A stretch of 58,231 nucleotides of DNA, counting the filler, from Jimgerdemannia flammicorona (lineage: Eukaryota): NCBI GenBank assembly GCA_003990765.1. It is 2 parts of 2 records of this genome, joined end to end, with 100 filler letters (N's around TTAATTAATTAA, not from the genome) between each part and the next. Parts side by side here need not be neighbours in the genome. Positions count along the whole stretch, not along the records: positions 1 to 29,071 come from RBNJ01000522.1; 1 more part is not named here. The stretch is one strand, 5' to 3'. Numbering within the stretch: position 1 is the first letter of the stretch; every line of letters begins with the position of its first letter. The position numbers and the translations under genes are program-made. The notes below the pieces were generated by a model that was not told where the DNA came from, did no database searches, and was given only the letters and a program-made list of their open reading frames with translations. Of this stretch, positions 1,621 through 44,249 are shown piece by piece.

Positions 1621-3258
1621 TATAACAGTGACCTCAGAATAATGACATCAGCACAGAAGACAGCCTTTCCTTATTAGCTATCAGATCAGAGCACAAGAAG
1701 ATCATATGGCATGACTCACCCAGACTACAAGATGAGCAATAATGACCAACAGTGAGTCATTGGGACCACAAGACAGATATCTTGAGGAATATAAAAGAAG
1801 GATCAAGAAACTGCAGTAGCAGCAACTTAACAAGACCCACTAATTCTGAAATAGCTCAAAGACTTACTATAAACAAAATTCCTACTGCTTGCCAAACCTC
1901 AAGATCAAGGAACCACCAAGGCCCCTCAGTCCAGGAAAGGATATTCCAAGACATCTGAAGAGCCATAAGGTCCTGCACCACAAGGACTCCTATATCAACC
2001 TGGGTATTGGTGACCCTTATCATTATATTCTCTATTACTACAAAATGGAAACAAGAATCACCATTACTACTGAATGCCTCCAGATGTGGTAAGAATATGA
2101 AATAGGAAACCTCCTCTGCCAGAAATTCTCTCAAGCCAGCCCTCAAGAGCTACAAGATGCCAATATGTAAAATAAGGATAGTCAAGAAGATTTATCAGAT
2201 CTCCAGGCATATACTATGATCAATCCCCAACTTAGAGCATATCAGAGTCTCAGACCTCAGGGATCTGTCAGCCCACCATATCAATACACTAGAAACTATA
2301 GTGGCTACAGAAGCCCAGTCCACTATCACTCTCAATAGTGACAAGATAGAAGAGTTCTGGTATCCCATCCTCTAAGACAATCTAGATCAATTCCTGCAAG
2401 GATTGATCTCAGTATTGTAAGGCCCAAGTATCCAGGTTAGACCTTCCCAAGACCCCACATTTGTCCCTTATTTTGTAGAAGAGGACCTTATAGACTGGAG
2501 AGCCTATGTTCTTCTTGCCCTCTCTGCTGCTGAATGTAATGATATCATTGGTGATAACATCATTCTATGCAATATACACAAAATGCACAACAAAGTACAA
2601 AATGTTTGCAGACCTCATCTCCTTTGAGGACAGTGACAAGGACAAAGCCCCCATGGTCCTGAACTTTCTGCTCTGAGTTCTTGATGATACTGAATTCTGC
2701 CAGCATCCTTTCCCATATAACAGTTAATCCTTCTACTAGTATTCTGATCCTGTGTGACTCTGAATTCTGCCAGTATCCTTTTCCTGTGTAATAGTTAATC
2801 CTTCCACTCCCATTCTGATCCTATGTGACTCTGAATTCTTCCAGCATCCTTTTCCTGTATCACCAAAATTCTACCAGAACTCTGAACTTGTACAACTATC
2901 TATACCAATACTAGAATCTGTACTTATATGTAACTGTAGTTTTCTGTATTCCAGTATTTTATTTGGTTATTGGAATTTATATTTAGCTTTATATCTTAGC
3001 AATCATTGAATTATATTTTGTATAAATACCCCTCTTATTTCCTTTGAAATAAAGTCAGTTCCAGTTCACTTTCCCTCAATTCCATGTAAGCAATCTAAGA
3101 GATAACAAGACAGTTTAAAGATAAGAAGTTTGAGGACTATAAGACCTGGAGAAGGCACTCCAATAAGAACTTGCTTATAACAAACTTGAGTTAGTCTAAA
3201 AGATATACCTTGAAGAGAATCTGATATATTTGAAGGACTTAGTGACCACTATGTGACA
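1621..3258 (+). repeat. 5' LTR of gypsy family A (1638 bp)
   Basis: Starts TATAACAGTG (decayed TG), ends ATGTGACA, colinear with 10952-12611. TATAAAT at ~3021 and AATAAA at ~3048; ~70-bp tandem repeat at 2692-2880. Confidence 0.95.
1851..2676 (+). pseudogene. Orphan ORF inside U3 of the family A 5' LTR (~280 codons ancestrally)
   Basis: Lies downstream of TATAAAAG (~1790). Most stops and frameshifts are repaired by the 3' LTR copy at 11182-12034. Confidence 0.7.
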
Positions 3259-3278
3259 ACTTAGTATCCATTGGCTGG
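3259..3278 (+). promoter_or_regulatory. Primer-binding site of family A (decayed TGGYGTCCATTGGCTG; tRNA identity uncertain, Asn-like)
   Basis: ACTTAGTATCCATTGGCTGG directly follows the LTR. The matching ACTTGGTGTCTATTGGCTGA follows the family B LTR at 24514. Confidence 0.65.
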
Positions 3279-3368: not shown

Positions 3369-4140
3369 ATGGAAATATATCCCCCTATATTCTATAGATA
3401 TACTACTGAATAATTTTCTGCCATACAAGCTCTCAATATGGATGCACAATTGGTCCTTCTACCTGTCAGCCTCAGGGGACCTGCCAGAGACAAGTTCAAT
3501 ATAGCTACCATTGCTAATACTAGTGCAGCCAAGCTTGCCAATATGAAGACCATTCTCAGAACTATATACTATACTGAAGAGATCAAACAAGCTCTCAAGG
3601 ATCAACTCAATACTATCTGCCAGGGACTCAGTGAAGATCCCAACTTATTCTATACTCAAATCTGCCACCAGATTGTCTTGGCTGGCTATGATGATGCCCT
3701 CAAGGAACAAATATTGAATTCAACCTTCCTTAAAGAAGTTTGCTCTAAAATTGCCCTAGCAATCCAGTCTACCCTAGCTGCTCTAACACTTGACCAGAAA
3801 GTGGTCTTTACACAGAGATATTGGACTGCCAGACACTCTATCAAATATTCAATGGAGAAAATAACTAGTATTAAGATAGAGCCATCAAAGCCAACCAGTA
3901 TCATACCTGCCATAGTTGTAAACTGACAACTATCCCCACCTACCCACAAGACAGCCAAAGCTGACTCAGTGGAGGAACTTGCCAAGCAGTTTTCTGAGAT
4001 GACTGCACACCTTGGTGATGTTGTTAGAGAAGTCTGAAGTGCCAACAGAAGACCAGTACAGAGATTTACAGCTGCTATAGAAGAATACAATATCACATAC
4101 TTTAGATGTTGAGAAGAAGGCCACTATGCAAAGAGTTGCA
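3369..4140 (+). pseudogene. gag: Gypsy A gag with decayed CCHC zinc knuckle
   Basis: ORF 3438-3926 (SLRGPARDKF...) follows the PBS. ITYFRC*EEGHYAKSC at ~4091-4140. Confidence 0.8.
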
Positions 4141-4719
4141 TGACCAAAACAAGATACAAAGCCCATCTAAGTAATGCTACCAGAACCAGAGAACAAACCA
4201 ATGCAGTAGTCATCAAGGAGATTGGCAATACTAATGATGAAGAATACTACAAGGAGTCTGAATTCTACCCTGTTACTGAAGGTACCAGAACCTGGTCCAA
4301 GCCCTATGACAAGAAGAGCAACAGCAAGTCAGTTGGAAGACCAAAGAAGACCCCAGCTGTTACTATTCAAAGTAAGACCCAACTCAAGGAGATTGATCAA
4401 GACATGGAGTTAGATAAAGCTACCCACCAAATCATTAAAGATACTACTCCAGTCTCAGGAGAAAGTGAAAGCAAGAAAGAACAGAAGCTGTACAAGACCA
4501 AGATCCATTAGTATGGTATCTACAAGGATCTCAAGGAACAGAAGATCAATGCTACTTTTGGACAACTAGTCAAAGTCTCTGCCTTCAGACAGCAGTTGAG
4601 AGTAGGACTTGCAACCACTGTCAATAACTAAGAGTACAAGATCATAGAAGCTCACAATGCACAAGAAGATAATCAAGAAGATTTAGGTGAAGAATCTGAA
4701 GACCAGTGTAAGACATCAG

Positions 4720-5090
4720 CCTATATCCTATATTAGATTGATAATTGTATCTTTGATGCCATTATTGATACTAGTGCTGGAGGATACCTCATGAGCAAGA
4801 AGGCAATTGACTGCCTAGGCTGGGATATTGAAGAGTCGACCAAGATAGTCTATATCACAGCAGATGATATATGAGCTACCCCTCTTAGCAAGATCCAAGA
4901 CGTCCCCATCAAGATTAGAGGAGCTATCATCCCAGTAGATATGATTGTTACAAATGCCACCAACTATGACATCCTCATTAGCAACCAATGGCTTCACAAG
5001 GCCAAGGCCATCATTGACCTCAATGCCCAGAAGATACAGATCAACTATAGAGAAAGAAAGGTATGAGTCTCTATCAATATCCCCAAAGGA
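4720..5090 (+). pseudogene. Gypsy A aspartic protease
   Basis: FDAIIDTSAGG (decayed DTG) at ~4752 and YDILISNQWLHKAKAIIDL (decayed ILG-DW motif). Confidence 0.85.
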
Positions 5091-5429
5091 GTTCTACCAG
5101 ACATGGAGAAAGGAGATGAAGAGGCACAGAAGTCATGCACTCAGTGAACAAGAACAATAACAAGAACAAGACACCCAAGCTTAAAGATAAGCAGTGGTAC
5201 AACAAGATCATTGATGGCTATACTCCTCAAGGAAGATTTCTCCATGGTACTAGGATGTACTGCTTTGAACACCTGAATGACTGCTGGTCCTGTATCAGTG
5301 AAGTCAGGAAAATCTGCCAACAAAAGTATGAGTAAGAAGCTGCTGAAGCAAAAAGGGAAGCTGAAGAAAATGACCAGCTGCCAGAGCTTCAAGCTGACAG
5401 TAAGGATGAGGAGGAACAAGAATTATACA

Positions 5430-5845
5430 TCACCCTCAAAGTCAAGAAGTTTTACTCCAAAGCCAAGATCTCAGAATATAAGACTGAAGAAGCCATAGAA
5501 ATAGATCTTGCCAGCATTTAAGATACTATCCTTGAACTACAGACCACTACTCTAATTGGCACTGGTTTTGGAGCCAAGTTGTCAGAAAACCATATCAGAA
5601 TTATTAAGACCAGGAGCAGTCTGGCCAAAAGTAAAATCTCAGTTGAAGGAGGAGTAATTAACTCTGATTACACTGGTGAGATTTTTCTCATAGTCAGGAA
5701 TCACAACCCCACTACCCCATTTGAAGTCAAGAAGTATGACAGGATTGGCCAGATGCTGATCTATGAAGTCAAGAAGCCTAAGATCACTGAAGCCATCAAA
5801 CTCATCAAGACCAAGAGAGGAGAACAAGGCTTTGAATCTACTAGA
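5430..5845 (+). pseudogene. dut: dUTPase domain within gypsy A pol
   Basis: Trimeric dUTPase motifs RSSLAK, GGVINSDYTGEI, DRIGQML and RGEQGFEST (ORF 5579-5974). Confidence 0.93.
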
Positions 5846-5989
5846 AGAGGAGCCTATACTGTCACCAAGATTATCAAACTTGAGCTCAAGAAAGACAAGA
5901 ACCAGAATAAGTACATATATACCATTGGAGAAATATTTCCTACAGAAGAACAACTTCTCAAGATCCTGTACTAGAATGAAGGAGTACTT

Positions 5990-6863
5990 GCCACAGACTT
6001 TAGAGATATCCACAATCAAGAACCCAAGTACTACCATGAAGTTGACACTAGTGATACTAAGCCCATCTACCAGAAAGCCAGACCTATACCACCTGTCTAT
6101 AGAGAATGGCTACAAGTAGAACTCAAGGAAATGAAAGAAGCTGAAATCATCAAGCAAGCTATCAACTCCTGGGCTTCACCCATTATCCTTACCCCAAAGA
6201 AAGGAAACAAGTCTGGAGAGTTTGCCCCAAGACTCTTTATTGATTATAGGAAGCTCAATACAATCACCAAAAAGGATAGACAGCCCTTACCAAATATTCA
6301 AGAAATTCTTACCACTCTTGGAAGTGAAGCCAAATACTACACCACTCTGGATCTGTTCTCAGGCTTCCATCAGATTGGTCTCACTCAAGATGCCAGTGAG
6401 AAATTAGCCTTCATCACACCTGATGCCACCTATATCTACCTGCAAATGCCATTTGAAATATACAATACCCCAGCAAGTTTTCAGTAAATAATGAATAGAG
6501 TCTTCAGCAATGAGATTGGAAAATGGCTCTTTGTCTATGTTAATGATGTGATCATCTTCAGCAATACTATATGGAAATATGTCAATGACATACAGCTAGC
6601 TCTCAAGAAGCTCAAGGAGCATAGCCTCTACATCAAGCCCAAGAAGTGCAAGTTTGCAGTCCAAGAAATCACCTACCTAGGATATATCATCAACCAGACT
6701 GGAATTCACATAGATCCTATGAAGATTGAGGCTGTTGCAGCCTACCCAAGACTCAGAACAACTACAGAAGTCCATGCCTTCCTTGGACTGGCCTCCTACT
6801 ATAGAAGATTCATCAAAGGATACTTCAACATTGCAGCACATCTATGAGCTACTGAAGAAGAAG
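5990..6863 (+). pseudogene. pol: Gypsy A reverse transcriptase, interrupted at 6864 by a solo LTR
   Basis: SWASPIILTPKK, RLFIDYRKLN, LDLFSGFHQI, MPFEIYNTPASFQ, VYVNDVIIFS (decayed YVDD), FLGLASYYRRFI. Confidence 0.95.
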
Positions 6864-8896
6864 TATAAGAGGGTTACTTTTTTAGAATAGCTATTACATA
6901 GTTCTGGAAGGGTTTTCTGGAAGTTCTGGATATTCTGGAAGACTGTTTTCTTATGGTCAAGATCAATATCATATGGAGTACATCCTCTATGCTTATTGAT
7001 TTCAAGATTGGATTAATATCTCAACCAAAGTCTTTTTTTGGACTAGTTCTGGATGTTCAGGATTTTCTGTATTTCAGGAAGTTCAAGAAACTAAGACCAG
7101 CTTAGTTGAATCAGCATATTGCTGCAGACAATACCCAATTAGGAAATTTCGTGATGGGGTTAGAAGTGGGACCTAATGGGGAGTGGATTTACTTAAGAGT
7201 GGTTTATGGGTTATTAAATAGGTTTATTCGCTATTTATGATATTGCTATACTAAGAGAAGCTATGTGAGGGGATATTGTGGAGAAGTACTCAGGAGTTGT
7301 GTTTGGATTGTTCAAGTCTGAGATTCTGAGGTCTGGGAGAGGGGATATTTATACTAGTAAGGGGCTATCTGGACTATACTAGATATGGATGTAGCACTAA
7401 GTGCCTTGCTGAGTCAGAATGCAGTCACATAGTACAAGTGTGATCTGACATGTCAAGAGATCATCTGACTGCTGAGTCTAATCTAACTATACTATGACTG
7501 CTAGGCTATTTATAGGTTTAGGCACTGTCTGGGTAGTTCTTGATGACATCACAATCAATTGCATCATCTCTAATAAAGTAGTCATCTAGAAAGAGTGGTT
7601 CGTGGATTACTTCTCCTTATTCACTAAGGTAATAATATATTGGAACTTTGTCTCCATCCCACAAGATGGCATCATCAGTCTCATATACTGGGTAAGGTGT
7701 TGGTAGGTGAAGGAGGGGTGCATCATCTTCACCTTCATCAGATTTGCTGTCTGTATACCTTCTGTAGGTTACAGCACTATGAGTTACAGGGTTGTAGTAA
7801 GCTGGTGACTGTGGTTCATATTGCTCGTACTCAGGTAGTGGAGTGGTTGGTTCGATCTCGAGAGTTGTCTGAAGGTACAGGTTGTGTTCTCTGGTCTCTT
7901 CATTATAGTTGAAGTAATTAGGGGTAAATGCGAGTTTGTATTCGTGCCAGTGGTCATTGTCTCAATAAGTCTTGTATGCAGTTATGAACTGTTGTAAGTT
8001 CATCGGCAAGGTTGGCAGCATGATCAAGGTTGGTAGAGATTCTTGGCTTGAGGTCATGTCAGCATCAGAGGGATCATTGTCTTCTGCTTCATCTTCATCA
8101 AAGTAGATTATATCATAGACATCCTTCATGGCATATTCGACTTGGGACATTTGCAGGATATGATCATTGGGGTGTGGGAAGGTTCTGACTGTTTCAATTT
8201 TCTCAAGGTACTTGTGGTTGAGTTTCTGTATCATGTCATCATTTGGCCATAGGATAGGGTAGCAATCATTTCAGTGGTAGTAACTTGGAGGTGGGGAATA
8301 ACAGTACTATACTCATAGAAGAGTTCTTGATGTTTGCAGGCAATGAGCTTCTGTTATTGAGACATCTGGGTAATGTCTATATCATGGTGGTGTTCAACCA
8401 TGTCTTTCAGGAGGCAGCTGATCTGGTAGTAGCTTGAGATTTGTCCAATTTGGTGGGCCTCACTAAGCATGTTCAGGACATTCCATCGGGCTTCCACAAA
8501 GTAAGGGGTGCTAGACTATGGATATTCATGAGGGGTAGAGGGGGTGGGGCTTGATTGATAATGGTATTCCAAATGTCAGCATGGTAGTTGTAGATCTCAG
8601 TAGTCATAGTTGTGTATATTCAGAAGTTGTGGTTGTTGTTTGTTTTGGTTCTCTATTCAATGCATCTCAGTGCTCAGTATATATGCATTTGGTCCTGATT
8701 GGTAAGATTCTGTTAATGTAAATCTTATGTTCTATGACTTTGTATTGACTCAGCTTTGTGTGCTGTGACTTTGGTTTGACTTAGCTTTGTGATCAAGCAG
8801 GTGATTTCCAGATTTATTTGGAGGTCGCGTGTGATTTCAGTGGCTTGTTCAGAGGGTGACATGTGATTTCGGTGGCTTGGAGGTTGTGTGCTTACA
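6864..8896 (-). mobile_element. 2033-bp solo LTR of another family (D), antisense inside gypsy A RT/RH
   Basis: Perfect 5-bp TSD AGAAG (6859-6863 and 8897-8901). Plus-strand termini TATAAG...CTTACA (decayed TGTAAG/CTTACA inverted repeat). The host frame LYELLKK|KTKFEW rejoins on removal. Minus-strand TATAAAT at ~7350 and AATAAA at ~7225. No gag/pol motifs. Confidence 0.9.
7518..8607 (-). pseudogene. Orphan acidic ORF (~360 codons, 2 frameshifts) inside solo LTR D
   Basis: CCAAT- and TATA-like elements at ~8700 and ~8680 precede ATG 8607 (MTTEIYNY). One frame runs from ~8290 to 7518 with only three internal stops, each of the CGA/CAA->T type. It includes ORF 7962-8234. Confidence 0.65.
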
Positions 8897-9402
8897 AGAA
8901 GACAAAATTTGAATGGACCAAGAAATAGCAAGAAACCTTCAATGAACCCAAGACTAGGTTGACCCAAGCACCCATCCTCAGAAGACCAGATTGGAACCTA
9001 GAGTTCATTCTGCAAACAGACACAAGTACTATAGGACTTGGAGCAGTCCAAGCTCAGAAGAAAGATAGACATGAATATATCATCTCTTATGTAAGCTGAG
9101 GTACCTGTAGAGTAGAACAGAACTACAAGTCATGCAAGCTCAAATGCTTAGCAGTAGTTTGGGCAGTAGACAAGTTCCACTACTACCTAGTCAGGAAATA
9201 CTTCACTATTCAAACAGATCATTCTGCTCTTGTCTGGTTATTCTACACTCTGAATCCCAAAGAAATATATATCAGATGGATCTACAGGCTGCAAGAGTAT
9301 GACTATACTATCAAACATCACTCAGGAAGAACCAATGCCAATGCTGATGCATTCTCAAGGATACCCTGAAATACTCCCATCAAGACTATTCAACATGAAT
9401 AA
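8897..9402 (+). pseudogene. pol: Gypsy A RT connection and RNase H
   Basis: LTQAPILRRPDW, FILQTDTSTIGLGAV, FTIQTDHSAL, NANADAFSR. The frame ends at CAT GAA TAA (9394-9402). Confidence 0.92.
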
Positions 9403-10580
9403 GGAGCTATACTATGGATTAATTAGCTATCTTGGGCAGTAGAATATGCCCAACCACCTTGAACCCTGGACTATCACTATAATCAACCAGACTTGGAAAA
9501 AATTTGAACTAGATAACACCATACTCAGAAAAGGAGGAAAGCTCATAATATCTGAACACCAGAAGTATCATGTAATGAAGGAAGTACATGAACAAGGATA
9601 TCTAGTAGGAACCAATATATACAATAAAGTGAGAAGAACCATATAGTGGTCCAAGATGGAAGAAGACCTGTACCAATTTTTCAAAGGATATAACAAGTGC
9701 CAAAAACAGAATCAAGATCAGCAAGACCAGGCATCCAGGTCATCAAGAATTGAGCCTATTCCCTTCCACTATATTGAAATGGATATTATTGGACCACTAT
9801 CAGTGATACTATTAGGAAACTACTACATTATAGTTATTGTAAACCTCTCTACCAAATAGATAGACAGGAGCATTAAAAGTAGCCAATGCTCTCAATATAG
9901 CTCACTTCCTGCACTGAGAAATCATCTGCTGCTACAAGACACCAAAGAAAATCACTACAGACTGTGACACAGAATTGCCAATGGATTCCATGAGATAATG
10001 TATCAGAAATCCAAAATTCAGCACATCAAGACTACTACATACCACTCTCAAGGAAATAGACAGACAGAGAGAACCAACAAAGCCTTAAAGAACATTTTGG
10101 CAAAAATCTCAGACATATATGACAATTGGGATAACTACCTCTCAACTGCCCTCTCTGTCTTATAAGATATATGATCACAGAGTACACACTTTACCCCAAG
10201 AGAACTGCTTTTTGGAGAAGAAGATTCTGATGAAACCTCAGCCACAAATCTAAACCTAACATGGAGACAGATTGACTCAGAAATCCAGAGACTACACCAA
10301 ATCAGGAAGAAGGCTGAAGATTACATTATTAAGTCACAAGTGCTGATAAGGAAGAATGTAGAAAAGAATCACAAGATCCTAGAACTCATCCAAATCAGAG
10401 AAAAGGTCCTACTATATTGAAATATAGTAGAAGCCTCATAGTTGCAAAAACTGGAGCCCAAATGGGATGGACCCTTCTATTTGCAAGATATCAAGGGAAC
10501 TACCTTCTGGCTTAGAAAACTCTCAGAGACCATACTATCTACTATGATATATAGGAACAGACTCAAGTAGTACTACAATC
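9395..10580 (+). pseudogene. Gypsy A integrase (HHCC, DDE core, GPF motif), starting at its own ATG
   Basis: MNKELYY start, VHEQGY...GYNKCQK, IEMDIIGPL, ITTDCDTE, YHSQGNRQTERTNK, KLEPKWDGPF. Confidence 0.9.
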
Positions 10581-10951
10581 TATACAAGAGAAGCAAAACA
10601 TGATAACTGCCCATGAGGTTCTAATCTATGAATTATAACAGCATGTCCCATAACCAGCAGGCAATCTGTCTGGACCATTATCTAAGAGATATGGCACCAG
10701 CAACTACTCATTCATGAGACTTTCAAAGCCAGAGGAGTTCAAACCATCAACTGATTGGTCAAGATCAGAATCAGGCCCTTGCTTAATATGAAGGGAGCAA
10801 CTCTTAACCATTATGCCAAAATATATAATGAAGATGCTAGCCTATAAATACTACTTTTCGACCCTCTATCAGAGGTTATGGGATTAGGAAATTTTTCAGA
10901 ATTGGACCAATGAATAAGGATATTCAAGAAGATCCTTATTCAGGAGGAAGA

Positions 10952-12611
10952 TATAATGGTGATCTCAGAATGATGACATCAGTATAGAAGACAGCCTTTC
11001 CTTACAAGCTATCAGATTGGAGTACAAGAAGATCATATGGCATGACTCACCCACACTACAAGATGAGCAATGATGACCAACTGTGAGTCATTGAGACTAC
11101 AAGACAGACATCTCAAAGAATATAAAAAAAGGATCAAGGAACTATAGTAGCAGCAACTCAATAAGACCTACTAATTCTGAAATAGCTCAAAGATATACTA
11201 CAAACAAAATACCTGCTGCTTACCAAACCTTAAGGTCAAGGAACCACTAAGGCCCCACAGTCTAGAAAAGGATGTTCCAAGACATCCAAAGAGTCATAAG
11301 GATCTGCCCTACAAGGACTCCTAGTGTCAACTTAGGTACTAGTGACCCTTATCATTATATTCTCTACTGCTGCAAGATGGAAATAAGAATCACCATTGCT
11401 ACTAAATACCTCCAGATGTGGCAAGAATACAAAATAGAAAACCTTCTCTGCTGGGAATTCCTTCAAGCCAGCCCTCAAGAGTTACAAGATATCACTTCGA
11501 TAGATATATGTAAAAATAAGGACAGCTAAGAAGATTCATCAGATCTTCAGGCATGCACTATGATCAATCACCAACTTAGAGTATACCAGAGTCTCAGACT
11601 TCAGAGATCTGTCAGCCCACTGTATCAATGCACTAGAAGCCATGGTGGTTATAGAAGTCCAGTCCACTATCACTCTCAATAGTGACAAGATAGAAGAGTT
11701 CTGATACCCCATCCTCCAGAACAATCCAGATCAATTCCTGCAAGAATTGATCTCAGTATTCCAAGGCCCAAGTATCCAGATTAGACCTCTCTAAGACTCC
11801 ACATTTGTCCCTTATTTTGTGGAAGAGGACCTCATAGATAGGAGAGCCCCTGATCTCCTTGCTCTCTCTGCTGCTGAACATAATGATATCATTGATGATG
11901 ATGATGTCATCCTGTACAATATATGCAAAATAGGCAGCAAAGTATGCAAAATGGATGAAACATTTTCAGACCTCATCTCCTTTGAGGACAGTGATGAGAA
12001 TGAAGCCCCCAAGGTTCTGAACTTTCTGTTCTGAGTTCTTGGTGATACCAAATTCTGCTAGCATCTTTTTCCTATGTAATAGTTAATCCTTTCACTGATA
12101 TTCTAATCCTGTATAACTCTGAATTCTGCCAGCATCCTTTTCCTATATAATAGTTAATCCTTTCACTAGCATTCTGATCCTGTGTGACTCTGAATTCTTC
12201 TAGCATCCTTTTTCTATATTACTGAAATTCTACCAATATCCTGAACTTATACAACTATCTGTACCAACATGGAATCTATACCAATAACTATAGTTTTCTG
12301 TATTCCAGTATTTTATTTGGTTATTGGAATTTATATTAAGCTTTATATCTTAGCAACTATTAATTATATTTTGTATAAATACCCCTCTTATTTTCTTTGA
12401 AATAAAGTCAGTTCCAGTTCACTTACCCTCAATTCCATGCAAGCAATCTAAAAGATAACAAGACAGTTTAAAGATAAGAAGTTTGAGGACTATAAGACCT
12501 TAGGAAGGCACTCCAATAAGAACTTGCTTATAATAAACTGAAGTTATTCTAAGAGATATATCTTAAAGAAAATCTGACATATTTAAAGGACTCAGTGACC
12601 ACTACATGAGA
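10952..12611 (+). repeat. 3' LTR of gypsy family A, containing the second copy of the U3 ORF (11182-12034)
   Basis: Preceded by polypurine tract CAGGAGGAAGA. Colinear with 1621-3258, differing mostly by transitions plus a few small indels. Confidence 0.95.
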
Positions 12612-14573: not shown

Positions 14574-15830
14574 TTAAAATGCTATCGCATTGTAGTCATC
14601 GTCTTGTTTTGTGAGATAAAATATGTAGATGACTATTGCTATTCTCTTACGAATTAAACGAGGCGGGATTTTTGTTGTTTTTGAGGGCCTTTGAAATGGT
14701 ATAGGCGATATCCGCCCCAATATTGTTGGACCATAGATCCAATAACATGAGGGTTTTGTTGGGTTCAAGGGAATTTGCGAGGGCCTTGGCGCCCTCCTTC
14801 CCTATGATATTTGAACTCAGTTCCAATGAGGTAAGAGTTTTGTTGGTTTCGAGGGTCTTTGCGACTCTCGTCACTGATGAAATTCCATGACAGATGTAAT
14901 GATGTGAGAATTGTGATAGTTTCAAGGGCTTTTGCAACAGCCATTGCGCCCTCCTCCCTGTTGTTATTCAACCGCAGATTCAATAAGGTGAGGGGTTTGT
15001 TTGTTTCGAGGGCCTCTACGAAAGCTATTCCGCCAACTTTCCCGATGCCATTCGATGACAGATCCAATGACATGAGGGTGCTTTTTGTTTTGAGAACTTC
15101 CGCAATGGCCTTTGCACCCCCTTCCCTGATGTTATTCGATGACATATCTAATGCGGTGAGAATTGTGTTGATTTCGAGGGCTTTTGCAACAGCCATTGCG
15201 CCCTCCTTGATATAATTCGACCGCAGATCCAATTTCGAGGGCCTTTGCGACAGCTTTTCCACCATCTTTCCCGATTTTATTCCAAGACAGATTCAATGAC
15301 ATGAGAGTTCTGTTTGTTTCAAGGGCCTTTCCGATGGCCTCTGCGCTCTCCTCCCCGATGTTATTTTATGACAGATACAAAGACCTGAGAACTATGTTGG
15401 TTTCGAGGGCTATTGCGACAGCCTTTGCACCCTCCTCCCTAATGTAATTTGACTGCAGATCCAATGAGGAGAGAGTTCTGTTGCTATGAGGGCCTTAGCA
15501 ATGGCCTTTGCCGATGTTATTCGATGACAGATGCAATAGTATAAGGATTGCATTGGTCAAGGACTTTTGCGAAAGCAATTGCACCCTCCTCCATGATCTT
15601 ATTCGACCGGAGATCCAATGAAGTGAGGGTTTTGTTGGTTTCAAGGGCCTTTCTTATGGCATTTGCGCCATTTTTCCCTATGATATTACTTGACAGATCC
15701 AATGAGGTGAGGGCTTTATTGATTTCCAGGGAATTTCCGATGGCCTTAGCGGCTGCCTCCTCGATTTTATTCGATGACAGATCCAAAGACGTGAGAATTT
15801 GTTGGTTTCGAGGGCTTTCGCGACGGTCCC
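14574..15830 (-). pseudogene. RNI/NLRC3-type leucine-rich repeat gene (28-aa repeats, about 14 units), frameshifted
   Basis: 84-bp units encoding LETNKTLTSLDLSSNxIxEEGAKAIAKA in ORFs 14765-15265 and 15517-15786 and in neighbouring frames, with several frameshifts. The 5' end abuts a DIRS-like remnant. Confidence 0.9.
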
Positions 15831-22279: not shown

Positions 22280-23660
22280 TGCTGTGAATATGGGGTGGAA
22301 CAAAGAAGGAAAGAAGGGTATTGTTTATTGATCCGAGTTGCTCACATTTTTATGTGTTGAAATCAGTGATATAATCACAGGTGATGTAGTCACATATAAG
22401 CTACATATAAGCTACAAATTATCAAGATGCAAAATAATAAGAATTTCAACCCTCCTGCTCAGCAATATAACATATAAGCAAGATAAAAAAATGCAAGAAT
22501 AATAAACCAAAAAATAACTGCAAACTGACTACAGATGAAACAAAAGAATACTATCTATACATACTTAAATTATAAGAAAATATAGTGAAAATTAAGGATA
22601 TAAATAGGTTCCATTAGTGGAAAAACTCAAATATAGAGAATGAAATGAGATATAGACTAGTGAATAATAATGCAATACATATAATGCTTAAAGAGAGAGA
22701 GAGATAATGCATTATTTATCTGCTTTCTTTGCATTATGAAATATTCCATAATTATTTATTACTAATATATACTTGTTATTCTATCATAGGTATATAGGTA
22801 AAAATATCTATATTACATATCTATTTCTTGATTATATTGCTTGAATTTGGATTCTAGAAGGGCTTTTATTAGCAAATCTGCAACCATATACTCTGTAGAG
22901 AGATATTTCAGTTATATAGTCTTATTTTCTAGATATTCTCTTATATAATACTATATATCAATATACTTTATTTTGAAATAATGTACTATATTCTTTGCTA
23001 TAGTAATCATAGACTTGTTGTCCTGATAGATAAGTGTAGGATATTATTTCTGAGTAAAGCCCAACTCTTTTAATAGTTGATATAGCTAAATAACTTCCTT
23101 ACTATGAATAATACTTGATATTTAGCTTATATAAATAATATTACCACTAAGTTCTACTTATATATTTGTCAAGATATAACTTCTTTGTTTAGTTGAAAGA
23201 GATATATAATTATAAATTGATAATCATTTAGATCTCTATTCTAATTACCATTATAGATATCTAATAATTATATATTATTACTATTATTACTCAATTCACT
23301 AAGAGTGAGGGTATAGTATATCATTCCTTTAATATATATAAATATATACTTGATTGTCAACCAATGTAAAGTATTAAAGCATAATAAATACTATGCTATC
23401 TTTTTCAGAATACATGAGATAATATATGTAATTCTTATTTTTATATATACAAACTGACTGCTTGCCTCTAGGAGATATTAATATTATCTTTAGTAGATAT
23501 AGTATTATCAGTCTCTGGTTTTTTTAATTTTACTGAAGTTTCTATAGTAATACTAACAGACTTATATATACTTACTGATATTAAATTATTCTAGAATAGC
23601 TTAGATAAAGGTTAACTATAATAGATATATAGTATGTATATTTCATTATATATATTATAA
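22280..23660 (-). mobile_element. Ty1/copia element 2: 3' LTR (22280-22451), PPT and decayed RNase H/RT end
   Basis: Minus strand reads KEVI*LYQLLKELGF...QDNKSMITIAKN...KYIDI*YYIRE...MVADLLIKAL. PPT TGAGCAGGAG precedes an LTR similar to 13256-13403. Confidence 0.85.
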
Positions 23661-24129: not shown

Positions 24130-27100
24130 GTAGTTATATTTCACAAATATTAAAGTTTTAGCAAATGTAAAAGTTTTATAAATATTAAAAACTTTGCAGA
24201 TGTTAAAGTTTTGGTAATTGTCAAAGATTTAACAGATATTGAAAGCTTTGATACTGGTGAAAAGTAACTCATAACTTAGCTACCTTATAGCTAGCAAACT
24301 TATATAAATATTCCCAGTATCTAGAGTAAATAAACCTCAGATCAAAATAGTTTAAAGCAAAGAGAAAGTAAAGGAACTAGTAAGTCTATAGGCAGATATA
24401 CTTCAAACTCACCCACCTCTGCATCCTGAGGACTCTGTGGAGTCAAAGAAGATCAAGTTTTCAAGATACAGAAATCTGATATACTTATATAGTTATACAT
24501 CTGCTATGTTACAACTTGGTGTCTATTGGCTGATAATTTAAGATAAATCCCTCACTTTCAAGCTAAACAATAAACAACTGCTACTATCTGAACAACCATA
24601 CAAATTGAATTAAGACATTTAGATAAAATGGATATGAAACTACTAGTATTCCATAAATATACCTCAGATGAATCAATTATCACCTTTATTGATGATTTTG
24701 AGTAGTATGTCACTATATGGACTCTGACAGCAGTATAGCAAGTAGCCCTTATACTCTTCAGCCTAAGAGGTCCTGTAAGAGCAGCATTCACAGCAGCAAT
24801 CCATTTAGGAAATGATACTAATGCTATACTGATAGTCAGAAGGCCTGACTCTAAGTCACCTACTATAGAGATGAGATCAAGCAAGCCCTGAAGAATCAGC
24901 TCAATACAATATACCAAGGAATGAGCAAGGATCCAAATACATTCTATACCAGAATCTGATATTAGATAATTTTTACCAATTATGCTGATACTATCCAAGA
25001 TTAAGTAGCAGAAGCTACCTTTATAAAAAGAGTTCACTCTAAGATAGCCATGGCTATCTGCTCATTACTAGTAGTCCTAGATCTAGCACAAAAGGTTACC
25101 TATGCCCAGCAATACTGGATAGTCAGATATCTATAAGACTATATAATGGGAAGAGTTACTGGAGTCAGAATCAAAGTACTCAAGGCAACTAGTATATAGT
25201 GATCAATTGAAACACACCTCAGCCAAGAGCTACTGAGTAGTAGAGAAACAGTGACTCTATAGAAGAACTTGCTAAGAAGTTTGCCAAAATGACTGCTTAT
25301 CTCAGAGATGTGATAAAGGAAATTAGAGAAAGAGACTACTGCCTAGTTCAGAAGTTTGCCACCATCTCAGACAAAAAGAGATATATCTGCTATACTTGTA
25401 GAGAAGAAGACCACTACTCATATAAATATATAAGTGAGACCAAGTACAAAGCTCAGCCCAGCAATGCTATAAGAAACAAGAAATAGGCCAACACTATTAC
25501 CTTCAAAGAAATCAGAGAATCAGATGAAGAAGAATAGGAGGTCTACTCCATACAGACCATTAAGAAAGATATTGTAAGCAATCCTATAAGAGACCACCAG
25601 AGAGATCCAAGAAGAACTCTATAGAGAGATAAATAGAGAGTGCTGCAGAAAACCAAGCCAAAGAAACAGATCAAGATATGGAGTTGGAACAGACTGTCCA
25701 AGATATCATCTAAGAAACTACCCCAACTAGTGAAGGAGAAAAGAAGAAGAAGCTTTGCAAGACCAGGACTTTTAAGTATGATATCTTCAAGGATCTCAGT
25801 CAATAAAAGATCAATATAACCTTTGGCCAGCTGGTAGAAATACCCATATTTAGACAGCAAATGAGATATGGACTTGCTGGGACAACCAAGGAACAAGGAT
25901 GAAAGATAACTGAGGCCAATAATGTTTAAAAAGACTCTGAAGAAAAGAGTGAAAATAATTATAAAACATCTATCTATATAACCTATCAAATTAAAGATAG
26001 AATCTTTGAGGCCATTATTGACACTAGAGTAGAAGGATGTCTCCTCAGTAAGAAAGCAGTAAACTATCTAAGTTGGGAGATTAAAGAAGCAATCAAATTA
26101 TTATTTTTCACAGTAGATAACACAAGAGGCATACCTCTAGAAAAGATCTGAGATATTCTAATCAAGTTTGGAGGAGCAACTATTCCAGTAGATGTGATTG
26201 TAATTAATGCTACCAGCTATGACATCCTCATTGGCAACCAGTGGCTTCATAAAGCTAGAGCAATAATTGACCTCAATGCTCAGAAGATGCAAACTATTTA
26301 CTAAGATCAGAAGATGTGAATTCCCATCAATGTCAACAAAAGAGTACTACTTGAGATAGAGGAAGAATAAAGTGAGCAAGAAGAAGCCTATATAGTGAGT
26401 ATATAGAAAAAGAAAATAAAAGTCAGATGGATTAGTGAGGAAGAATAGTACAAAAGGATCATTGAGGAATATATACCACAAGGAGTCTGCTCTCATGGAA
26501 TCAAGATATACTATATGAAATATATTGATGATTACTATCAGTATATCAGCAGAATTAAGAAAATCTATTATGAAAGAAGACAGAAGGCCCTCAAGAAATA
26601 AGGTAGGAAAAGAAGTAGAAAGAGGATGATAAACCACCAGCCCTCCTAGAGAAGATGAAGAAGAAATCAAGGTCAAGATTTGAAAAATCCACTCTAATGC
26701 AGTTTTACCAGAATATAAGTCAGAGAATACAGCTGGAATGGATATTGCTACAGTAGAAGAGACCATATTTAAGCCTCAGACAACTACTCTACTTACAACT
26801 GGTCTACCATATCGGGATCCTCAAGACAAGAAACAGTTTGGCCAAGAGTGATATTACTATTGAAGGAGGAGTCATTAATTCAGATTATATTAGAGAAATA
26901 TTACTCATTACTAGAAACCACAACTCTATAATTCCATTTTCAATCAAGAAGAAGGACTGATTGATACAGATGTTGATCTTCTCAGTTCTTCAGCAAAGAT
27001 TATAGAAGTCAAGAAGTTGGAGAAAACAGAAAGAGGAAAGAAAGAATTTGGATCTATAGAAAGAGGAGTATTAGCTAGTACCAAGATTACTGAACTAGAT

Positions 27101-29055
27101 CACAAGAAGAAGGTAACTACAAACATGCATAGATATACCATTAGAAATGAATTCCTACTCAAAAAGGAACTCAAGAAGATACTCTATGAATTTGGGAATG
27201 TCCTAGCCACAGACTTTATAAATATTAAGGAAAAGACTCCACACTACTATCATGATATAGATACAGGAGATACCAAACTCATTTACCAAAAAGCAAGTCC
27301 AATTCCACCAGTCTACTGTAAATGACTCAGAGAAGAAATCAGGCAGATAGAAGAAGCTGGTATCATCAAAGAAGCCAGCAGCCCTAGGGCTTCACAACAG
27401 TCAGATTAGCCCTGAAGAAAGGAAGCAAACCAGGAGAATTCACCCCAAGACTCTGCACTAATTATAAGAAGCTCAATCTGGCTATAAAGAAGGATCACCA
27501 ACTACTGCCCCTCATCAGTGACATCCTTATAACTCTGGGAGATGAAGTATAGTATTAAGTATCTTGGATTTATACTCAGAATTCTACCAGATTGATCTCA
27601 CTGAAGCAGTAAGTAAAAAATCAGCCTTCATTACCTCAGATAGAACCTATATCTATCTGCAAATACTATTTGGAATGTACAATGCACCAGCAAGCTTGCA
27701 GTGAATGATGAATAAAATCTTCCTCTATGATATGGGAAGATAGATAATAGTTTATATAAATGATATTATCATCTACAGTAAGACAGCTGAAGAATATCTG
27801 CAGCACATCTAGCAGATGATGGAAAGGCTAAGAAAGCATAATCTTTACATCAAGTCTAAGAAGTGCAAGTTTGTGGAAATCAAGATCTCCTATCTTGGTC
27901 ATATTATTAACTAAGATAGAATATATACAGACTCTCTCAAGATTCAAGCAGTTGTAGTATACCTAAGGCCCACTAATATCACTGAAGCCCAAGCCTTTAT
28001 GGAACTCACCTCATATTACTATAGATTTATTAGAGGATTCTCCAATATCACAGGCCCAATTTATGAACTCAATAAGAAGAATATCAAGTTCCAATAGACT
28101 GGCAGATAACAGAAAGCATTTGATGAGCTCAAGATCAGACTGACCCAAGCACCCATCCTTAGAAGACCTGATTGGACTCAAGAATTCATTCTATAGACAG
28201 ATTTAAGTACTCAAGGACTAGGAGCTGTCCTGGCCTAAAAGAAAGACAAAGTAGAATATATCATTACATATCTTAGCTAAGAAACTCAAGGAGCTGAAAA
28301 GGTGTATAAATCCTATAAGTTTGAATATCTTGCAGTTATCTAGACTATAGAGAAGTTCCACTACTATCTTGTGGAGAGATACTTCACTATTTAGACTGAC
28401 CTCTCAGCCCTCATCTAACTACTGACCACTAGACAATCTAAAGGAATCTATACTTGATGGATTATGAGGTTGTAAGTCTATAATATAACCATTATGCACT
28501 GCTCTGGAAGAACTAATGCCAATGTAGATGCCCTCTCACAGACACTCCAAAAGACCCCCAACCAGTAAATAAACCATGAATAAGGAACTCTATTATAAAA
28601 TTATCACCTATCAGAAATAGTAAAAGATGCCTCAATACCTGAAAGAATAGACACAAATAATTATTAATAGAATATGGAAACAATTTGAGACTGATGGAGA
28701 AATACTGAAAAAAGAAAAGCTACTAGTTATATCTGAATATAAGAAGGAGCAAATAATGAAATCAGTATATGAACTTGGCTATCTAGGAGGAATGAATATA
28801 TACAAAAAAGCAAGAAAAACAATATGGTGACCAGGAATGGAGGAAGATATTGGACAATTTGTCAAGACCTGTAACAAATTCCAGAAATAGAAATAAGACC
28901 AACAAAATCAGACCTCAGGATTAGCATACATAGAACCAGTACTCTTTGCACATATTGCAATAGATATAATTGGCCTGCTACTCTTGATTTTGAATGATAA
29001 CTGATATATTGTTATTATCATAGACCTTTTCACAAAATAGATAAAGGCAGGATCT
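24130..29055 (+). mobile_element. Decayed Ty3/gypsy family B (5' LTR end, PBS, gag, PR, dUTPase, RT, RH, partial IN), cut by contig end; LTR start not resolved
   Basis: LTR ends ATGTTACA at 24513, followed by PBS. Gag from 24628 with YICYTCREEDH knuckle; PR FEAIIDTR (~26004); RT VYINDIIIYS (~27749); RH NVDALS; IN MNKELYY at 28576. Colinear with family A throughout. Confidence 0.92.
26665..27057 (+). pseudogene. dut: dUTPase domain within gypsy B pol
   Basis: AVLPEYKSENTAGMDI, RNSLAK, EGGVINSDY, ERGKKEFGS. Confidence 0.9.
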
Positions 29056-29071
29056 CTCTTTTTTTTTTTTT

Positions 29072-29171
29072 NNNNNNNNNNNNNNNNNNNNNNNNNNNNN
29101 NNNNNNNNNNNNNNNTTAATTAATTAANNNNNNNNNNNNNNNNNNNNNNNNNNNNNNNNNNNNNNNNNNNN
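29072..29171. other. Artificial 100-bp contig linker (N44-TTAATTAATTAA-N44)
   Basis: Symmetric N runs around a six-frame-stop/PacI-like 12-mer. The flanking contigs are 29071 and 29060 bp, consistent with size-sorted concatenation. Confidence 0.95.
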
Positions 29172-29401
29172 GCTAGCAAACTTGTATAAATAACCCAGTA
29201 TCTTCGAGTGAATAAACCTCAGATCGAAATAGTTCAAAGCAAAGAGATAGCAAAGGAACTAGTAAGCCTGCGGGCAGATACACTTCGAACTCACCCACAC
29301 TTCCCTGCAACTTCAAGAGACTCTGCGAGAGTCAGAACAGTCAAGTTTTCAAGATACAGAAATCTGACGTACTTTCAAGAGTAAGCGTCCGCTACGTTAC
29401 A
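29172..29401 (+). repeat. 3' end of a weakly mutated (CpG-retaining) family B LTR
   Basis: Colinear with 24291-24513 and ends GCTACGTTACA. It keeps CpG and CpA sites that are lost in the other copy. Confidence 0.9.
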
Positions 29402-30479: not shown

Positions 30480-33400
30480 ACTATTCACATTATACAAAAA
30501 ACTCACAGTACTTTTTGTACAGTTTTTGAAGAAAGATATTGATAATATATTATCAAATGAGAGATCTGATAGGCATACTGGGTCAGGTAGACTTAGAAAT
30601 TTGACTGGCAGAATGTAGAGAGGGATATGGTATAGAGATGGGCTTCTTTAGAAATACTAGTAGATAGGAGGAAACTGGAGGGAGTCAGAAGCCCAGCTTG
30701 AGAGATAGAGAGACTGGGCAGATGAGCTTTGTAGCTAAGATAAAGACAGGTAGTGGGCCTGGAGATATATATTAGAGATGACCAGTAAAGATAAAAGGGA
30801 AAGTTGAATACTGAAAGAATTAGAGGAGCATTACTTAGTAGAGTTGGTTTAGTAACTAGAGGGGCTATAGTGAGGAGTATGGACATAACTACTGATGACA
30901 GAGTGATGGTGGATATGGAAAAATATCCAGATGTAATGGTTGATAGTAAGCTGAGCAGATGGGAAACATAAGGAAGGGAAATCTGACTAATTGTATAATG
31001 GGCCTGATAGTAGTCCTATTACTCAAGAAGTCAATTATAGAGTTTATAGTCATATTGTATTTCAGAGAGCTTACAGTAACTGCCAAGATGATTTTGGAAA
31101 TATTGGTGAATCAAATGTCTGATATTATCTTAGTGAGGTTTCTATATAGACTTGAGGGAGTTGAGGTGAGTTTAAAGTAAGAGGAACCTTTGAAGGAGAT
31201 CTTGAAGGTGGGGTTGTCAGTAGATAAGGTAGTGGTGCTAATATCTAGGTGTCTAAGATGAGATCCCAGAATTATATAGCTCTTAGTAAAGGAGATACCT
31301 AAGGTGATGACTATTAAGATAAAGAGGAAGGTTGAGAAGATTATGAAAAAGTATAATGAGGTGGTAGATGTTAGATTCTATATATAAGAGAGTACTATAT
31401 TCAGAAAAAAGATATAGATATTAGACTCTAGCTGGCTGAGAAGAAAGCTACTGAGAAGGCTAGCAGCTAGCCTATAGTACTTATGTGATATACTTTTGTA
31501 TATAAGATAATAAGGATAAAGAGGAGTATGAAGAAGAAGGATTTGTTAGAGGCTCTGAAGAAACTAGATAGAATAGTAGAGTGTCATGCAGTGGTATAGT
31601 AGGCTTATTTGGAATTAATATATTTGGAAGTAGGGAATAATTAGAGGATATATATAGTTAAGATGATATGGAAGAAGGCTTAAGAGAGAAAGAGACAGAG
31701 AGATCTGCTGACTGGTTTAATAGAGAAGATGAAGAGCAGGGTAAGGGAGAAAATAAGATAAGTATAGGAGAGTAACTAGACTGAGAGTAGAGAGGGAGAG
31801 AGGGTAGAAGCTATGATATCAAGTAAGAAGATAAAGGGTCAATAGCTCTATAATAATAGTGCTCAAAGTCTGGAAATATCTAGAGTGGGCTGAAGTTTAG
31901 AAAAAGAGTAGCATAGAGAATATAGAGATATAATATATGTATAGTGCTAGGTATGGAGTATTAGATATAGATAAAGAAAGATGAGTGATTGAAATAAAGG
32001 AAAATGAGTTGTTTAATATTCTAGAGGAGATATAGAATGAGTCTACAGTACTAAAGCTAATGCTGATTTATTGAGTGAGGAGAGGTCTGAGTCTCATATT
32101 AGAGGATGAGTGGGAGATACTTACTGAATGTGTATAATGATGAAAGATCAGACTGCTGAGAAGCTTAGTGAGATGGATATATATATTATCAGAAAGAATA
32201 TCTGGAGGAGAGAGTTGAGTAGTGAGAGAGTAGTGGAGAGACCAAAATTAGATATTCTAGTGATAATGTTAGAGACTGAGAACTATGATATTGATGTGAA
32301 AAGAGAGATATATTTGGTAGTGTTTGCTGAGAAGTATGCTGCTTTCTGATAGAGGCAGTAAAATAGATTGATAATCTGGCAGACAGTATATATAGAGTAC
32401 AAGGAGTTGATAGAGACCAGAGATGATGAGGAGATTGCTGAGATACTGGTTAGATTGGATGCTAAGAAGGATGAGAAGGTGGAAGTAATTGTGGAATATA
32501 ATCTAGATATAGCTAGAGAGAAGTTGAGTATGGAATTGTAAGGGGAAAGAGATTGCTACAAAATACTATTACTTGATTATGAATAGTATAACTAATATTT
32601 TCTCATTAAATGTGAATGATCTGATGGACTCTGTAAGGTATCAAACCATTTTTACTTAGCTAAAGAGTTTAGAGATAAATATTTTAATAGTACAAGATAT
32701 ATACTATAAAGAGAAATTAGATGAACAGGTGTGGACATAGAGATAGAGTAATATGGTAGATTAGAGGAGTAAGTTGTGAATTCTGATATAGAAAGGCAAG
32801 GAGAAACTATATGAGATTGAGGGTTGGAGAGATGATTTGATATTAGTAGAGTGGTAGAGATCTGGGTGGGATCAGATAGTAGTAGACTCTTGCTATCACT
32901 CTTCTGTAAGGAGTGATCAAGTAGAGTGCCTGGATAGACTTCTGTAGTATAGAGTCCTAGCTGAAGTGAGTGTGAATATACTAGAGAGAACCAATATTCA
33001 GACTCATCTCCACTTCTACCAAACTGTCTACACCCTAATAACCCTCAGTAATCAGACCAAGAGTACCACTCTATCTCCCAGATCTCTTAAATATCTATTC
33101 CCAGCAATCTATAATCAGAATCCAGTCTATTCTGGCTCTCAACCCATTCACTCAGTACCAATAGACTCTCCTGTCAATGAGTGGACTCATTCAAGACCAC
33201 AGGTCAATGAATACAGGTATGTCTTAGGTGCCCAGCAGCCAAAAAATATTTTAATGCTGATGTTATTGTTTAAGATATATATAAATTGGGTATAGGTTTC
33301 TTTTTATGCTATTAGTATAGTGTGTGTATTAATTCTATATGTAATCCATTTCACCCAATACTTCATATATACTATATTCTCACATTCTGTACTTCTGTAC

Positions 33401-40151: not shown

Positions 40152-41569
40152 TGTGATTATGAATCTCCTATTTATTACTACTATAATATATAAGTCTTAA
40201 TTATAATTAGATATATTAATCTATATTCTAAGTAAGCATCTATACCTAGTCAATGTTTTTGCTATAATATCGATCTACATTAGGGAGGGGTAACTATACT
40301 ATGTTTTGCATAATGTCAACTATGCTATGCTCACGTGATATCAATCTTTGTGATGAAACACCAATAACCCCATGTCACTGAAATGACCATACATCACCCT
40401 GAAATCCTAGGAAAGAAACCTCAAATAAATGATCGATTGCTCTGTATTTGGGTGGAAACACACAGTATAAAAGACCAGCCCAACCACTATGTATATATAT
40501 GTAGAGTGAGGTGGATGGTAATGAAATGTGTACAAATGTACGGAAGCGCAAAAGCATAAGTATAAAGTGTGTACAAAGTAATGTTGGGTGAATGGTAGAA
40601 TTACATATAGAAGTAATGTACATACTGAGCTAGTACCCGAAAAGGAAAGACAATGCCTGATTTAGAAATGCCTTAGACAAACAATGGTGTTGAAACATTT
40701 TGGGCACTATACACCCAAGACCTTCCTGCATTCATTGACCTGTGGTCTTGAGCGAGCCCCCTCATTCAATGTTTTTGCCATAATGTCCATCTATGTTAGG
40801 GAGGCGTAACTATACTATGTTTTGCATAATGTCAACTATGCTATGCTCATGTGATGTCAATCTTCGTGATAAAACACTAATAACCCCATGTCACTGAAAT
40901 GACCATGCATCACCCCGAAATCCTAGGAAAGAAACCTCAAATAAATGATTGATTGTTCTATATTTGGGTGGAAACATACAGTATAAAAGACCGGCCCAAA
41001 TGTTATATGTAAAATGTGCAGAATGATGATGTGTAGTGGTGTGAGTTGGCAGCGCCGAAAGAAAGAACTTGGCCCAAATGAAGTAAAAAGAGAGTTATGG
41101 ATATGGAAATATGAGTGAAGTAGAAGATAGAAAGGTGCTGAAGGCTTAATAGAAAGGCCATGCCTAATGTTGATGATATGGCTGGTGTTGCAAGCCATGC
41201 GGTTAAAACCGAGGGCAGGTGTCGCAAATCATGTGAAAGCCAAGAAGCGGATTTAATGAGCCCAGCGATCCAGGGATAGAACTGGTGTCATGAGTTGTGT
41301 GGGGGTCCAAGTAGGCTGGTGTCATGAGCTGCACGATAATGAAAAGAAGGAGGGCTGGTGTTACAAGCTGCACAATGTCAGAAAAGGTTGGTATCATGAA
41401 CTATGCGGTAGTAAGACGCTGAGGTGGGTGGATTTAAGGCTGGTGTTGTGAGCTGTGTGGTGATGGAAGGCTGATGAGGAGAGGTAAAGGCTGGTGTCAC
41501 ATGCTGCATAGAACCTGGAATAAGCTGGTGTCATGGGCTATACGGTAGAAAAAGAGGAATGGGAAATCA

Positions 41570-44099: not shown

Positions 44100-44249
44100 C
44101 TATGTGACAGGGCAAAGAGTGGAAGAAGAAAGAGAAAAATGACATAGAATGTCTTGAGCAGCTTAATTAAGAGGGGTGGTAAATGGGGGATGGAGTAGGG
44201 TATTTGGAGTGGCCGGGGGTATGTATAAAGAATAAACAGAGGCGAGTTC

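Follow-up and report, generated by a model that had tools for sequence, protein, structure and literature searches.

The window, by which we mean the whole stretch of Jimgerdemannia flammicorona DNA that was analysed (58,231 nt), contains near its beginning two long terminal repeats (LTRs) in direct orientation on the plus strand. BLAST aligned positions 1621-3251 with 10952-12604 as direct repeats of approximately 1.63 kb (85.96% identity over 1659 columns), and a MAFFT alignment extended the matching ends to about 3258 and 12611. The 5' LTR is accordingly given as 1621-3258 and the 3' LTR as 10952-12611. The two LTRs differ at 233 positions, 190 of which are transitions. The 3' LTR follows directly on a purine run (AGGAGGAAGA, 10942-10951, plus strand), and just downstream of the 5' LTR lies a stretch that resembles a primer-binding site in its sequence (TAGTATCCATTG, 3262-3273, plus strand), possibly of the kind that pairs with the initiator-Met tRNA. 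The flanks gave no matching 5-nt target-site duplication (TATAG before the 5' LTR, ATTGC after the 3' LTR).

Between the LTRs, the internal region (3408-10420, plus strand) encodes in this order gag, protease, dUTPase, reverse transcriptase (RT), RNase H and the zinc domain of an integrase. Domain matches place the aspartic protease (Pfam RVP_2) at about 4760-5045, the dUTPase at 5522-5842 (E = 1.5e-18), the RT (RVT_1) in a stretch ending at 6844, the RNase H (RT_RNaseH) at 9100-9369 and the integrase zinc domain (Integrase_H2C2) at about 9557-9715, all on the plus strand. An integrase core domain was not matched in the internal region. All internal frames, from gag through integrase, are broken by stop codons and frameshifts, and the closest polyprotein in the databases is only 42% identical to that of the element. 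Judged by its sequence, the carrier is an old, degenerate Ty3/gypsy element with a dUTPase between protease and RT. A foreign insertion of about 1.96 kb (6845-8802) splits the RT from the RNase H; it is missing from a related element at 24.6-28.9 kb of the window and from the homologous polyprotein P0006. On the minus strand of this insertion (7617-8270), open frames of 102 and 114 codons lie next to each other; they are rich in acidic residues and have no Pfam match. In one sequencing run labelled as a soil metagenome (X1; share 0.08), 7468 contigs match the element at 80% identity or more, and these contigs differ from it at 827 places.

Each of the two LTRs houses a broken copy of one gene, located at 1878-2676 in the 5' LTR and at 11209-12034 in the 3' LTR (both plus strand). 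The copies were identified by tblastn against the relatives P0134 and P0128 and by hmmsearch with a profile of the protein family, which yielded i-Evalues of 7e-64 for the 5' LTR copy and of 4.5e-32 and 1.1e-64 for the two frames of the 3' LTR copy. Because the Met-Pro start and the stop of P0134 align at these boundaries, we assign the gene to the two intervals, with a length of about 271 codons. The start position reads ATT in the 5' LTR copy (1878) and ATA in the 3' LTR copy (11209), neither of them ATG, and the natural stop is a TGA at 2674-2676 and 12032-12034, respectively. Measured against P0134, the 5' LTR copy has in-frame stops at 1956, 2090, approximately 2217, approximately 2373 and approximately 2418; the 3' LTR copy also has five, one of which, the stop at about 2217 in 5' LTR numbering, is common to both. 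The 5' LTR copy is further disrupted by a 1-nt gap at about 1993, a net 11-nt gap at about 2163 and an 11-nt gap at about 2612, and the 3' LTR copy by a single extra base in a run of A at about 11510. An ATG at 11272 in the 3' LTR copy corresponds to the start of P0128. Neither window copy is an uninterrupted frame, and both are pseudogene members of the family.

An earlier note on this DNA had proposed that the LTR has its own gene for a protein, which becomes visible when the two LTRs are allowed to complement each other. This proposal is borne out by the natural, uninterrupted relatives P0134 and P0128, which are collinear with the LTR frame up to the same stop. The eight pairs in which a stop codon of one LTR faces a sense codon of the other were all found, with four stops private to each LTR, and the frameshifts are indeed copy-specific, three in the 5' LTR and one in the 3' LTR. 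The TATA box at 1790, described as separate from the TATA at 3021 and the AATAAA at 3048, was located together with these two. The proposed gene model had to be revised at its start, which was placed at an ATA at 1851 and lies 27 nt further downstream according to the Met-Pro of the relatives (1878 and 11209), and in its length, which was put at about 284 codons and is about 271 according to the relatives. The shared TGA had been suggested as a possible former CGA; the relatives have a Trp codon at this position.

This shared TGA is accompanied by a neighbouring change that is also common to both copies. One relative, P0139, ends at the same stop (approximately 2217 and 11565 in the two LTRs) and has the identical neighbouring change from Pro to Leu. 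As the stop is shared and P0139 ends there, the truncation may be older than this insertion and may mark a sub-lineage, with parallel change as the alternative; the truncated form of the gene may thus have spread as a sub-lineage. This suggests that the element transposed with its gene already truncated, in which case the gene would not have been needed in cis.

The relatives were found with an alignment of the C-terminal half of the two window copies, in which each stop was written as X, by hmmsearch against 1.84 billion representative proteins. Six proteins matched at E-values of 0.001 or lower, among them P0128 (1e-53), P0129 (7e-44), P0130 (1e-12) and P0131 (6e-9); the two others are long repetitive proteins with unrelated domains and were set aside. 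Residues 102-246 of P0128 (247 aa) match profile positions 1-151, and its N-terminal 100 residues, which the query did not cover, align with the LTR frame further upstream. A profile built from the four proteins retrieved nine members among 5.8 billion clusters, and together with P0130 the family comprises ten proteins (P0128, P0129, P0130, P0131 and P0134-P0139). All ten come from metagenome records and none from an annotated genome; the contigs measure 600-4848 nt for the nine members with known contig size. P0134 (271 aa) begins with Met-Pro-Ala-Ala-Arg where the window reads Ile-Pro (1878 and 11209) and ends at the stop of the LTR frame, and P0130 and P0131 also start with Met-Pro at the start position of the gene. 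In tblastn, residues 1-99 and 102-270 of P0134 align to the 3' LTR with 60-65% identity. Within the window, the family profile matches only the two LTRs.

Several further searches were negative within their scope. The family was not found in the viral contig and genome contig collections searched, and a metagenome scan with a purine/pyrimidine pattern taken from 2013-2044 returned three loci, none of which is related to the element by blastn. A word-indexed search of proteins between 92 and 294 aa gave no match to the N-terminal piece. The residence of the family in an LTR is established for this one element only.

Seven members are 63-85% alike among each other. In the core (residues 121-215), the close relatives share 84-86% identity, against 36-57% in the linker (216-244) and 74-86% in the C-terminal motif (245-271), an unevenness typical of proteins. 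P0138 is an exception, with 24% in the linker and 41% in the C-terminal motif, and beyond the motif the sequence of its tail is unlike that of the other members. Several members are fragments of decayed copies that start at an internal Met or end at lesions. The distant relatives P0130 and P0131, which stand at 36-47% identity (47% and 41% to P0134, respectively), still have uninterrupted frames, of 214 aa and 342 aa. The two window copies gained five stops each over approximately 15% of total LTR divergence, so that open frames in relatives as distant as these indicate constraint on the family. Since database proteins are open frames by construction, it is chiefly the distant members that carry this argument. 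By these sequence comparisons, the LTR frame is a real gene of a small, previously undescribed orphan family.

The window copies themselves were examined for coding signal. The longest run without a stop common to both copies is 201 codons, followed by a run of 156 codons in the next frame of the same (plus) strand. Columns of the whole LTR alignment were shuffled both with and without keeping neighbour pairs, and only stops present in both copies were counted; the mean longest run was approximately 105 codons, and 201 codons were reached by 3 shuffles in one set of 500 and by 1 in the other. This test is not convincing alone because picking the sense codon from either copy is biased. A codon-usage score trained on the gag-pol frames of the element itself, which picked the true frame in all eight left-out segments, chose the proposed frame for the C-terminal half in both copies (margins of 0.30 and 0.37 relative to the remaining sense frames; P = 0.001 and P < 0.001 in 1000 dinucleotide shuffles) and gave no clear frame for the N-terminal half.

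The differences between the two LTRs reflect decay after insertion. Within the gene they number 49, 38 and 31 at the first, second and third codon positions (265 sites each, P = 0.086), and the divergence of the gene (14.9%) is no lower than that of the rest of the LTR (11.2-11.7%). Both window copies are dead pseudogenes that have decayed neutrally since insertion, and as the LTRs of one element diverge only after insertion, codon bias between them is uninformative on selection in the family. Among 100 C/T differences between the LTRs, the next base is A in 41 and is itself an A/G difference in a further 17, and CpG occurs at 0.32 of its expectation across the window. The transition bias and the CpG deficit point to deamination, within repeats, of cytosines that were methylated or targeted in some other way.

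The encoded protein is rich in Arg at its N-terminus, has a core that is conserved and mostly helical, and closes with an acidic tail. In P0134, residues 1-40 include 10 K/R versus 2 D/E, and the 56 residues 216-271 include 17 D/E versus 3 K/R. The tail holds an F-x-x-hydrophobic-hydrophobic motif after acidic residues and ends with P-x-x-L-N-F. The motif (FADLI, FSDLI, FTNLI or FNNLL) is kept in eight of the ten aligned proteins; P0135 reads MDLI, and P0130 and P0139 stop short of the tail. The Arg-rich character of the N-terminus is weak in the distant P0130 and P0131. Motifs of the F-x-x-hydrophobic-hydrophobic type occur in acidic activation domains and also in several other short binding motifs. 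Four X1 contigs have a run of GAT repeats at the position corresponding to window 2645, just before the conserved end of the gene; since GAT runs read as poly-Asp in the frame of the gene, the acidic linker varies in length among copies.

Database searches did not connect this protein to a known domain. Pfam gave no match for the window copies (E-values up to 1) or for P0128-P0131 (up to 0.1), a profile search of the PDB returned no relatives at E-values up to 1, and the ESM Atlas held no usable neighbour for a stop-free stretch of 79 aa or for P0134. Rfam had no match over the whole window. AlphaFold2 models reached a pLDDT of 33.0 with the two window copies and of 42.9 with the alignment of ten members, the second model being mostly helical. 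The low pLDDT means that the protein may be largely disordered or that the alignment is too shallow.

The remainder of the window is rich in other retroelements. A second dUTPase-bearing Ty3/gypsy element, the related one mentioned above (24.6-28.9 kb), occupies 24290-29374 and is approximately 70% identical to the first in the nucleotide sequence of pol. Its detectable terminal repeats are short (24290-24486 and 29172-29374) and adjoin two runs of N at 29072-29115 and 29128-29171; a search with the family profile revealed no LTR gene in this element or its surroundings. Two candidate distant copies of the gene, at 8240-8503 (minus strand, within the insertion) and at 22468-22668, were rejected, as they scored approximately 3 bits with hhalign probabilities of 0.7-3.9%. 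The U3 region showed no similarity to the rest of the window in tblastx and blastn. Another RT-bearing element is present in two copies of opposite orientation, at 33171-37678 and 41436-45962, which share 77% identity over 4.5 kb; an RVT_1 domain lies at 43101-44099 on the minus strand inside the latter copy. A further retroelement is present in tandem at 46691-51551 and 52775-57681; its copies are approximately 70-80% identical and match the same polyprotein weakly. At 14757-15824, direct repeats (61-75% identical, units of about 240-430 nt) form an array on the margin of a GC-richer stretch (45-51% GC, 14-20 kb), in which long frames have no Pfam match. Among 15 other long frames of the window, Pfam gave matches of the RT type only.

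Within the LTRs, the gene is surrounded by candidate transcription signals on the plus strand. An upstream TATA box (TATAAAAG, 1790-1797) lies 81 nt before the start position of the gene and is kept in the 3' LTR (TATAAAAA, 11121-11128). Two TGASTCA sites lie upstream of it (1712-1718 and 1753-1759; counterparts at 11043 and 11084). The motif is not enriched window-wide (14 sites found, 12.8 expected), and we regard the pair as a weak hint only. Between the stop of the gene and a second TATA box is a tandem repeat of 71 nt (2690-2860; 2.4 copies, 86% matches). The second TATA box (TATAAATA, 3021-3028; counterpart at 12374) is identical in both LTRs and is followed by the sole AATAAA of the 5' LTR (3048-3053; counterpart at 12401). 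Tandem repeat, second TATA box and AATAAA lie within 360 nt and end approximately 200 nt short of the LTR end, so that, given the position of the AATAAA, about 200 nt remain for R and U5. With the gene upstream of the tandem repeat, the TATA box at 3021 and the AATAAA at 3048, its placement in U3 fits this anatomy, under the U3 boundary that we infer. The TATA box 81 nt upstream and the lone AATAAA downstream would also fit a self-contained transcription unit.

Taken together, we consider it probable (roughly 75%) that the U3 of this Ty3/gypsy LTR houses a complete accessory gene of about 271 codons, which would work as follows. The second TATA box (3021) would drive the full-length RNA; U3 would then measure approximately 1.43 kb and include the gene. 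Transcription from the upstream TATA box would begin about 30 nt past 1790, and the resulting mRNA would traverse the gene and end after the AATAAA at 3048, giving a message of approximately 1.25 kb that any LTR could produce. The full-length RNA would also carry the gene towards its 3' end, as happens with sag of mouse mammary tumour virus (MMTV) or lentiviral nef, and the product of the gene may act in trans. A gene inside U3 is present in two copies per full element. Solo LTRs could preserve it after the element itself is gone, and it could be transcribed independently of gag-pol.

A cellular gene might instead have been captured into U3 from a host gene family and travel there as a passenger without a role for the element. 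Such a capture would accommodate that neither P0130 nor P0131 is tied to an LTR, that the gene is missing from the related element at 24.6-28.9 kb, and that the present copy probably moved with a truncated gene. We nevertheless judge it improbable, because all ten members are metagenomic instead of deriving from an annotated genome, seven of them resemble each other to the degree expected of repeat copies (63-85%), P0139 shares the stop of the window copies and as many as 7468 X1 contigs match the element at 80% identity or above. Moreover, the start and stop of the gene fit neatly between the TATA box and the poly(A) signal of the LTR.

Slightly less credible still is a placement of the gene in a very long R or leader region, with the TATA box at 1790 as the main promoter and the gene as the first frame upstream of gag. 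Leader ORFs upstream of gag occur in some plant elements, and the TATA box at 1790 with its two TGASTCA sites is as promoter-like as the TATA box at 3021. However, this would make R approximately 1.25 kb long and would require the full-length RNA to continue past the AATAAA at 3048 of the 5' LTR. The succession of tandem repeat, TATA box and AATAAA within 360 nt, about 200 nt from the LTR end, is instead the usual layout of U3, R and U5.

An open frame arising by chance from base composition and from choosing the sense codon of either LTR, a choice that does inflate open frames (shuffled mean of about 105 codons), has a negligible probability, since it is refuted by the uninterrupted relatives P0128 and P0134, with independent proteins matching the whole length (E = 1e-53), further relatives at about 40% identity and a run of 201 codons in just 0.2-0.6% of the shuffles.

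The charge layout of the product suggests, as the likeliest reading but with low confidence, a trans-acting regulatory or adaptor protein for the element family. Among specific roles, an activator of the LTR is conceivable but tentative, an adaptor to a host pathway or an antagonist of silencing appears unlikely, and a factor for RNA handling or export more unlikely still; a role other than these is a somewhat better prospect than any of them, although itself below even odds. The anti-silencing or host-modulating role suggested in the earlier note remains a guess. It also seems doubtful, at about one chance in four in our estimation, that every LTR, solo LTRs included, constitutes an autonomous gene that is equipped with a promoter, a frame and a poly(A) signal and makes a trans-acting regulator for all copies of the family. 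The gene is a concrete candidate for the means by which such a family could exert control in trans, over itself or over its host. It represents an orphan family that is clearly constrained in sequence, lacks a known domain and numbers only ten detected members, and it cautions annotators not to presume that long LTRs are non-coding.

Accessory genes housed in LTRs are a hallmark of a few complex retroviruses, and LTR retrotransposons are generally described with any extra genes in the internal region. The ORF3 types of bdelloid elements, ORFs in the env position of plant elements and CERV of Cer1 resemble the LTR gene in being lineage-specific extras of unknown or regulatory function in Ty3/gypsy-like elements. 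In the portions of the literature available to us, extra ORFs of LTR retrotransposons are located in the gap between pol and the 3' LTR or elsewhere within the element, and these portions describe none inside an LTR (PMC5408684, PMC2864245, PMC10309623). According to the same portions, bdelloid and basidiomycete elements also bear a dUTPase (PMC5408684, PMC2864245, PMC10309623), which lies between protease and RT in the bdelloid elements (PMC5408684) and, as in the present element, in PosPlaTy3-5 of Postia placenta, in Phanerochaete and in Tmt1 of Tuber (PMC2864245). An LTR gene is not mentioned for PosPlaTy3-5, the Phanerochaete element and Tmt1 in the text available, which sets them apart from the element described here. 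In the open-access literature searched, judged by titles and abstracts, mentions of ORFs in LTRs concern almost only MMTV sag and other retroviruses, with no Ty3/gypsy case among them; where the term "LTR ORF" is used for fungi, it denotes polyproteins and not a gene inside the LTR. As far as could be found, a gene inside an LTR is thus known from few retroviruses and has no precedent in Ty3/gypsy elements.

Among these retroviral genes, lentiviral nef and foamy-virus bel/tas lie at the 3' end, extend into U3 and have accessory or regulatory roles. They only overlap U3, whereas the LTR gene lies wholly inside the LTR and has a TATA box of its own. By Pfam and the PDB profile search, the LTR protein belongs to neither the Sag nor the Nef family, and these searches gave no sequence similarity to the foamy-virus proteins either. 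The foamy-virus activator Tas has an acidic C-terminal domain, a layout similar to that inferred for the LTR protein. Acidic transcriptional activators in general may serve as a working analogy only, based on the acidic tail and the F-x-x-hydrophobic-hydrophobic motif.

The closest arrangement is that of MMTV sag, which likewise forms a complete frame inside a long U3 (more than 1 kb), so that both LTRs and the 3' part of the genomic RNA contain it. Sag is expressed from spliced messages. There is no sequence relation between the two genes, as the window copies and the six fetched proteins (four of them family members) lack a corresponding Pfam match, and the carriers differ as well, the present one being a Ty3/gypsy retrotransposon without env whose LTR protein has no evident membrane anchor. 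Should each LTR prove to be an autonomous gene, it would represent a retrotransposon counterpart of the retroviral Tas, Tat or Nef that arose in a Ty3/gypsy lineage and defines a new protein family.
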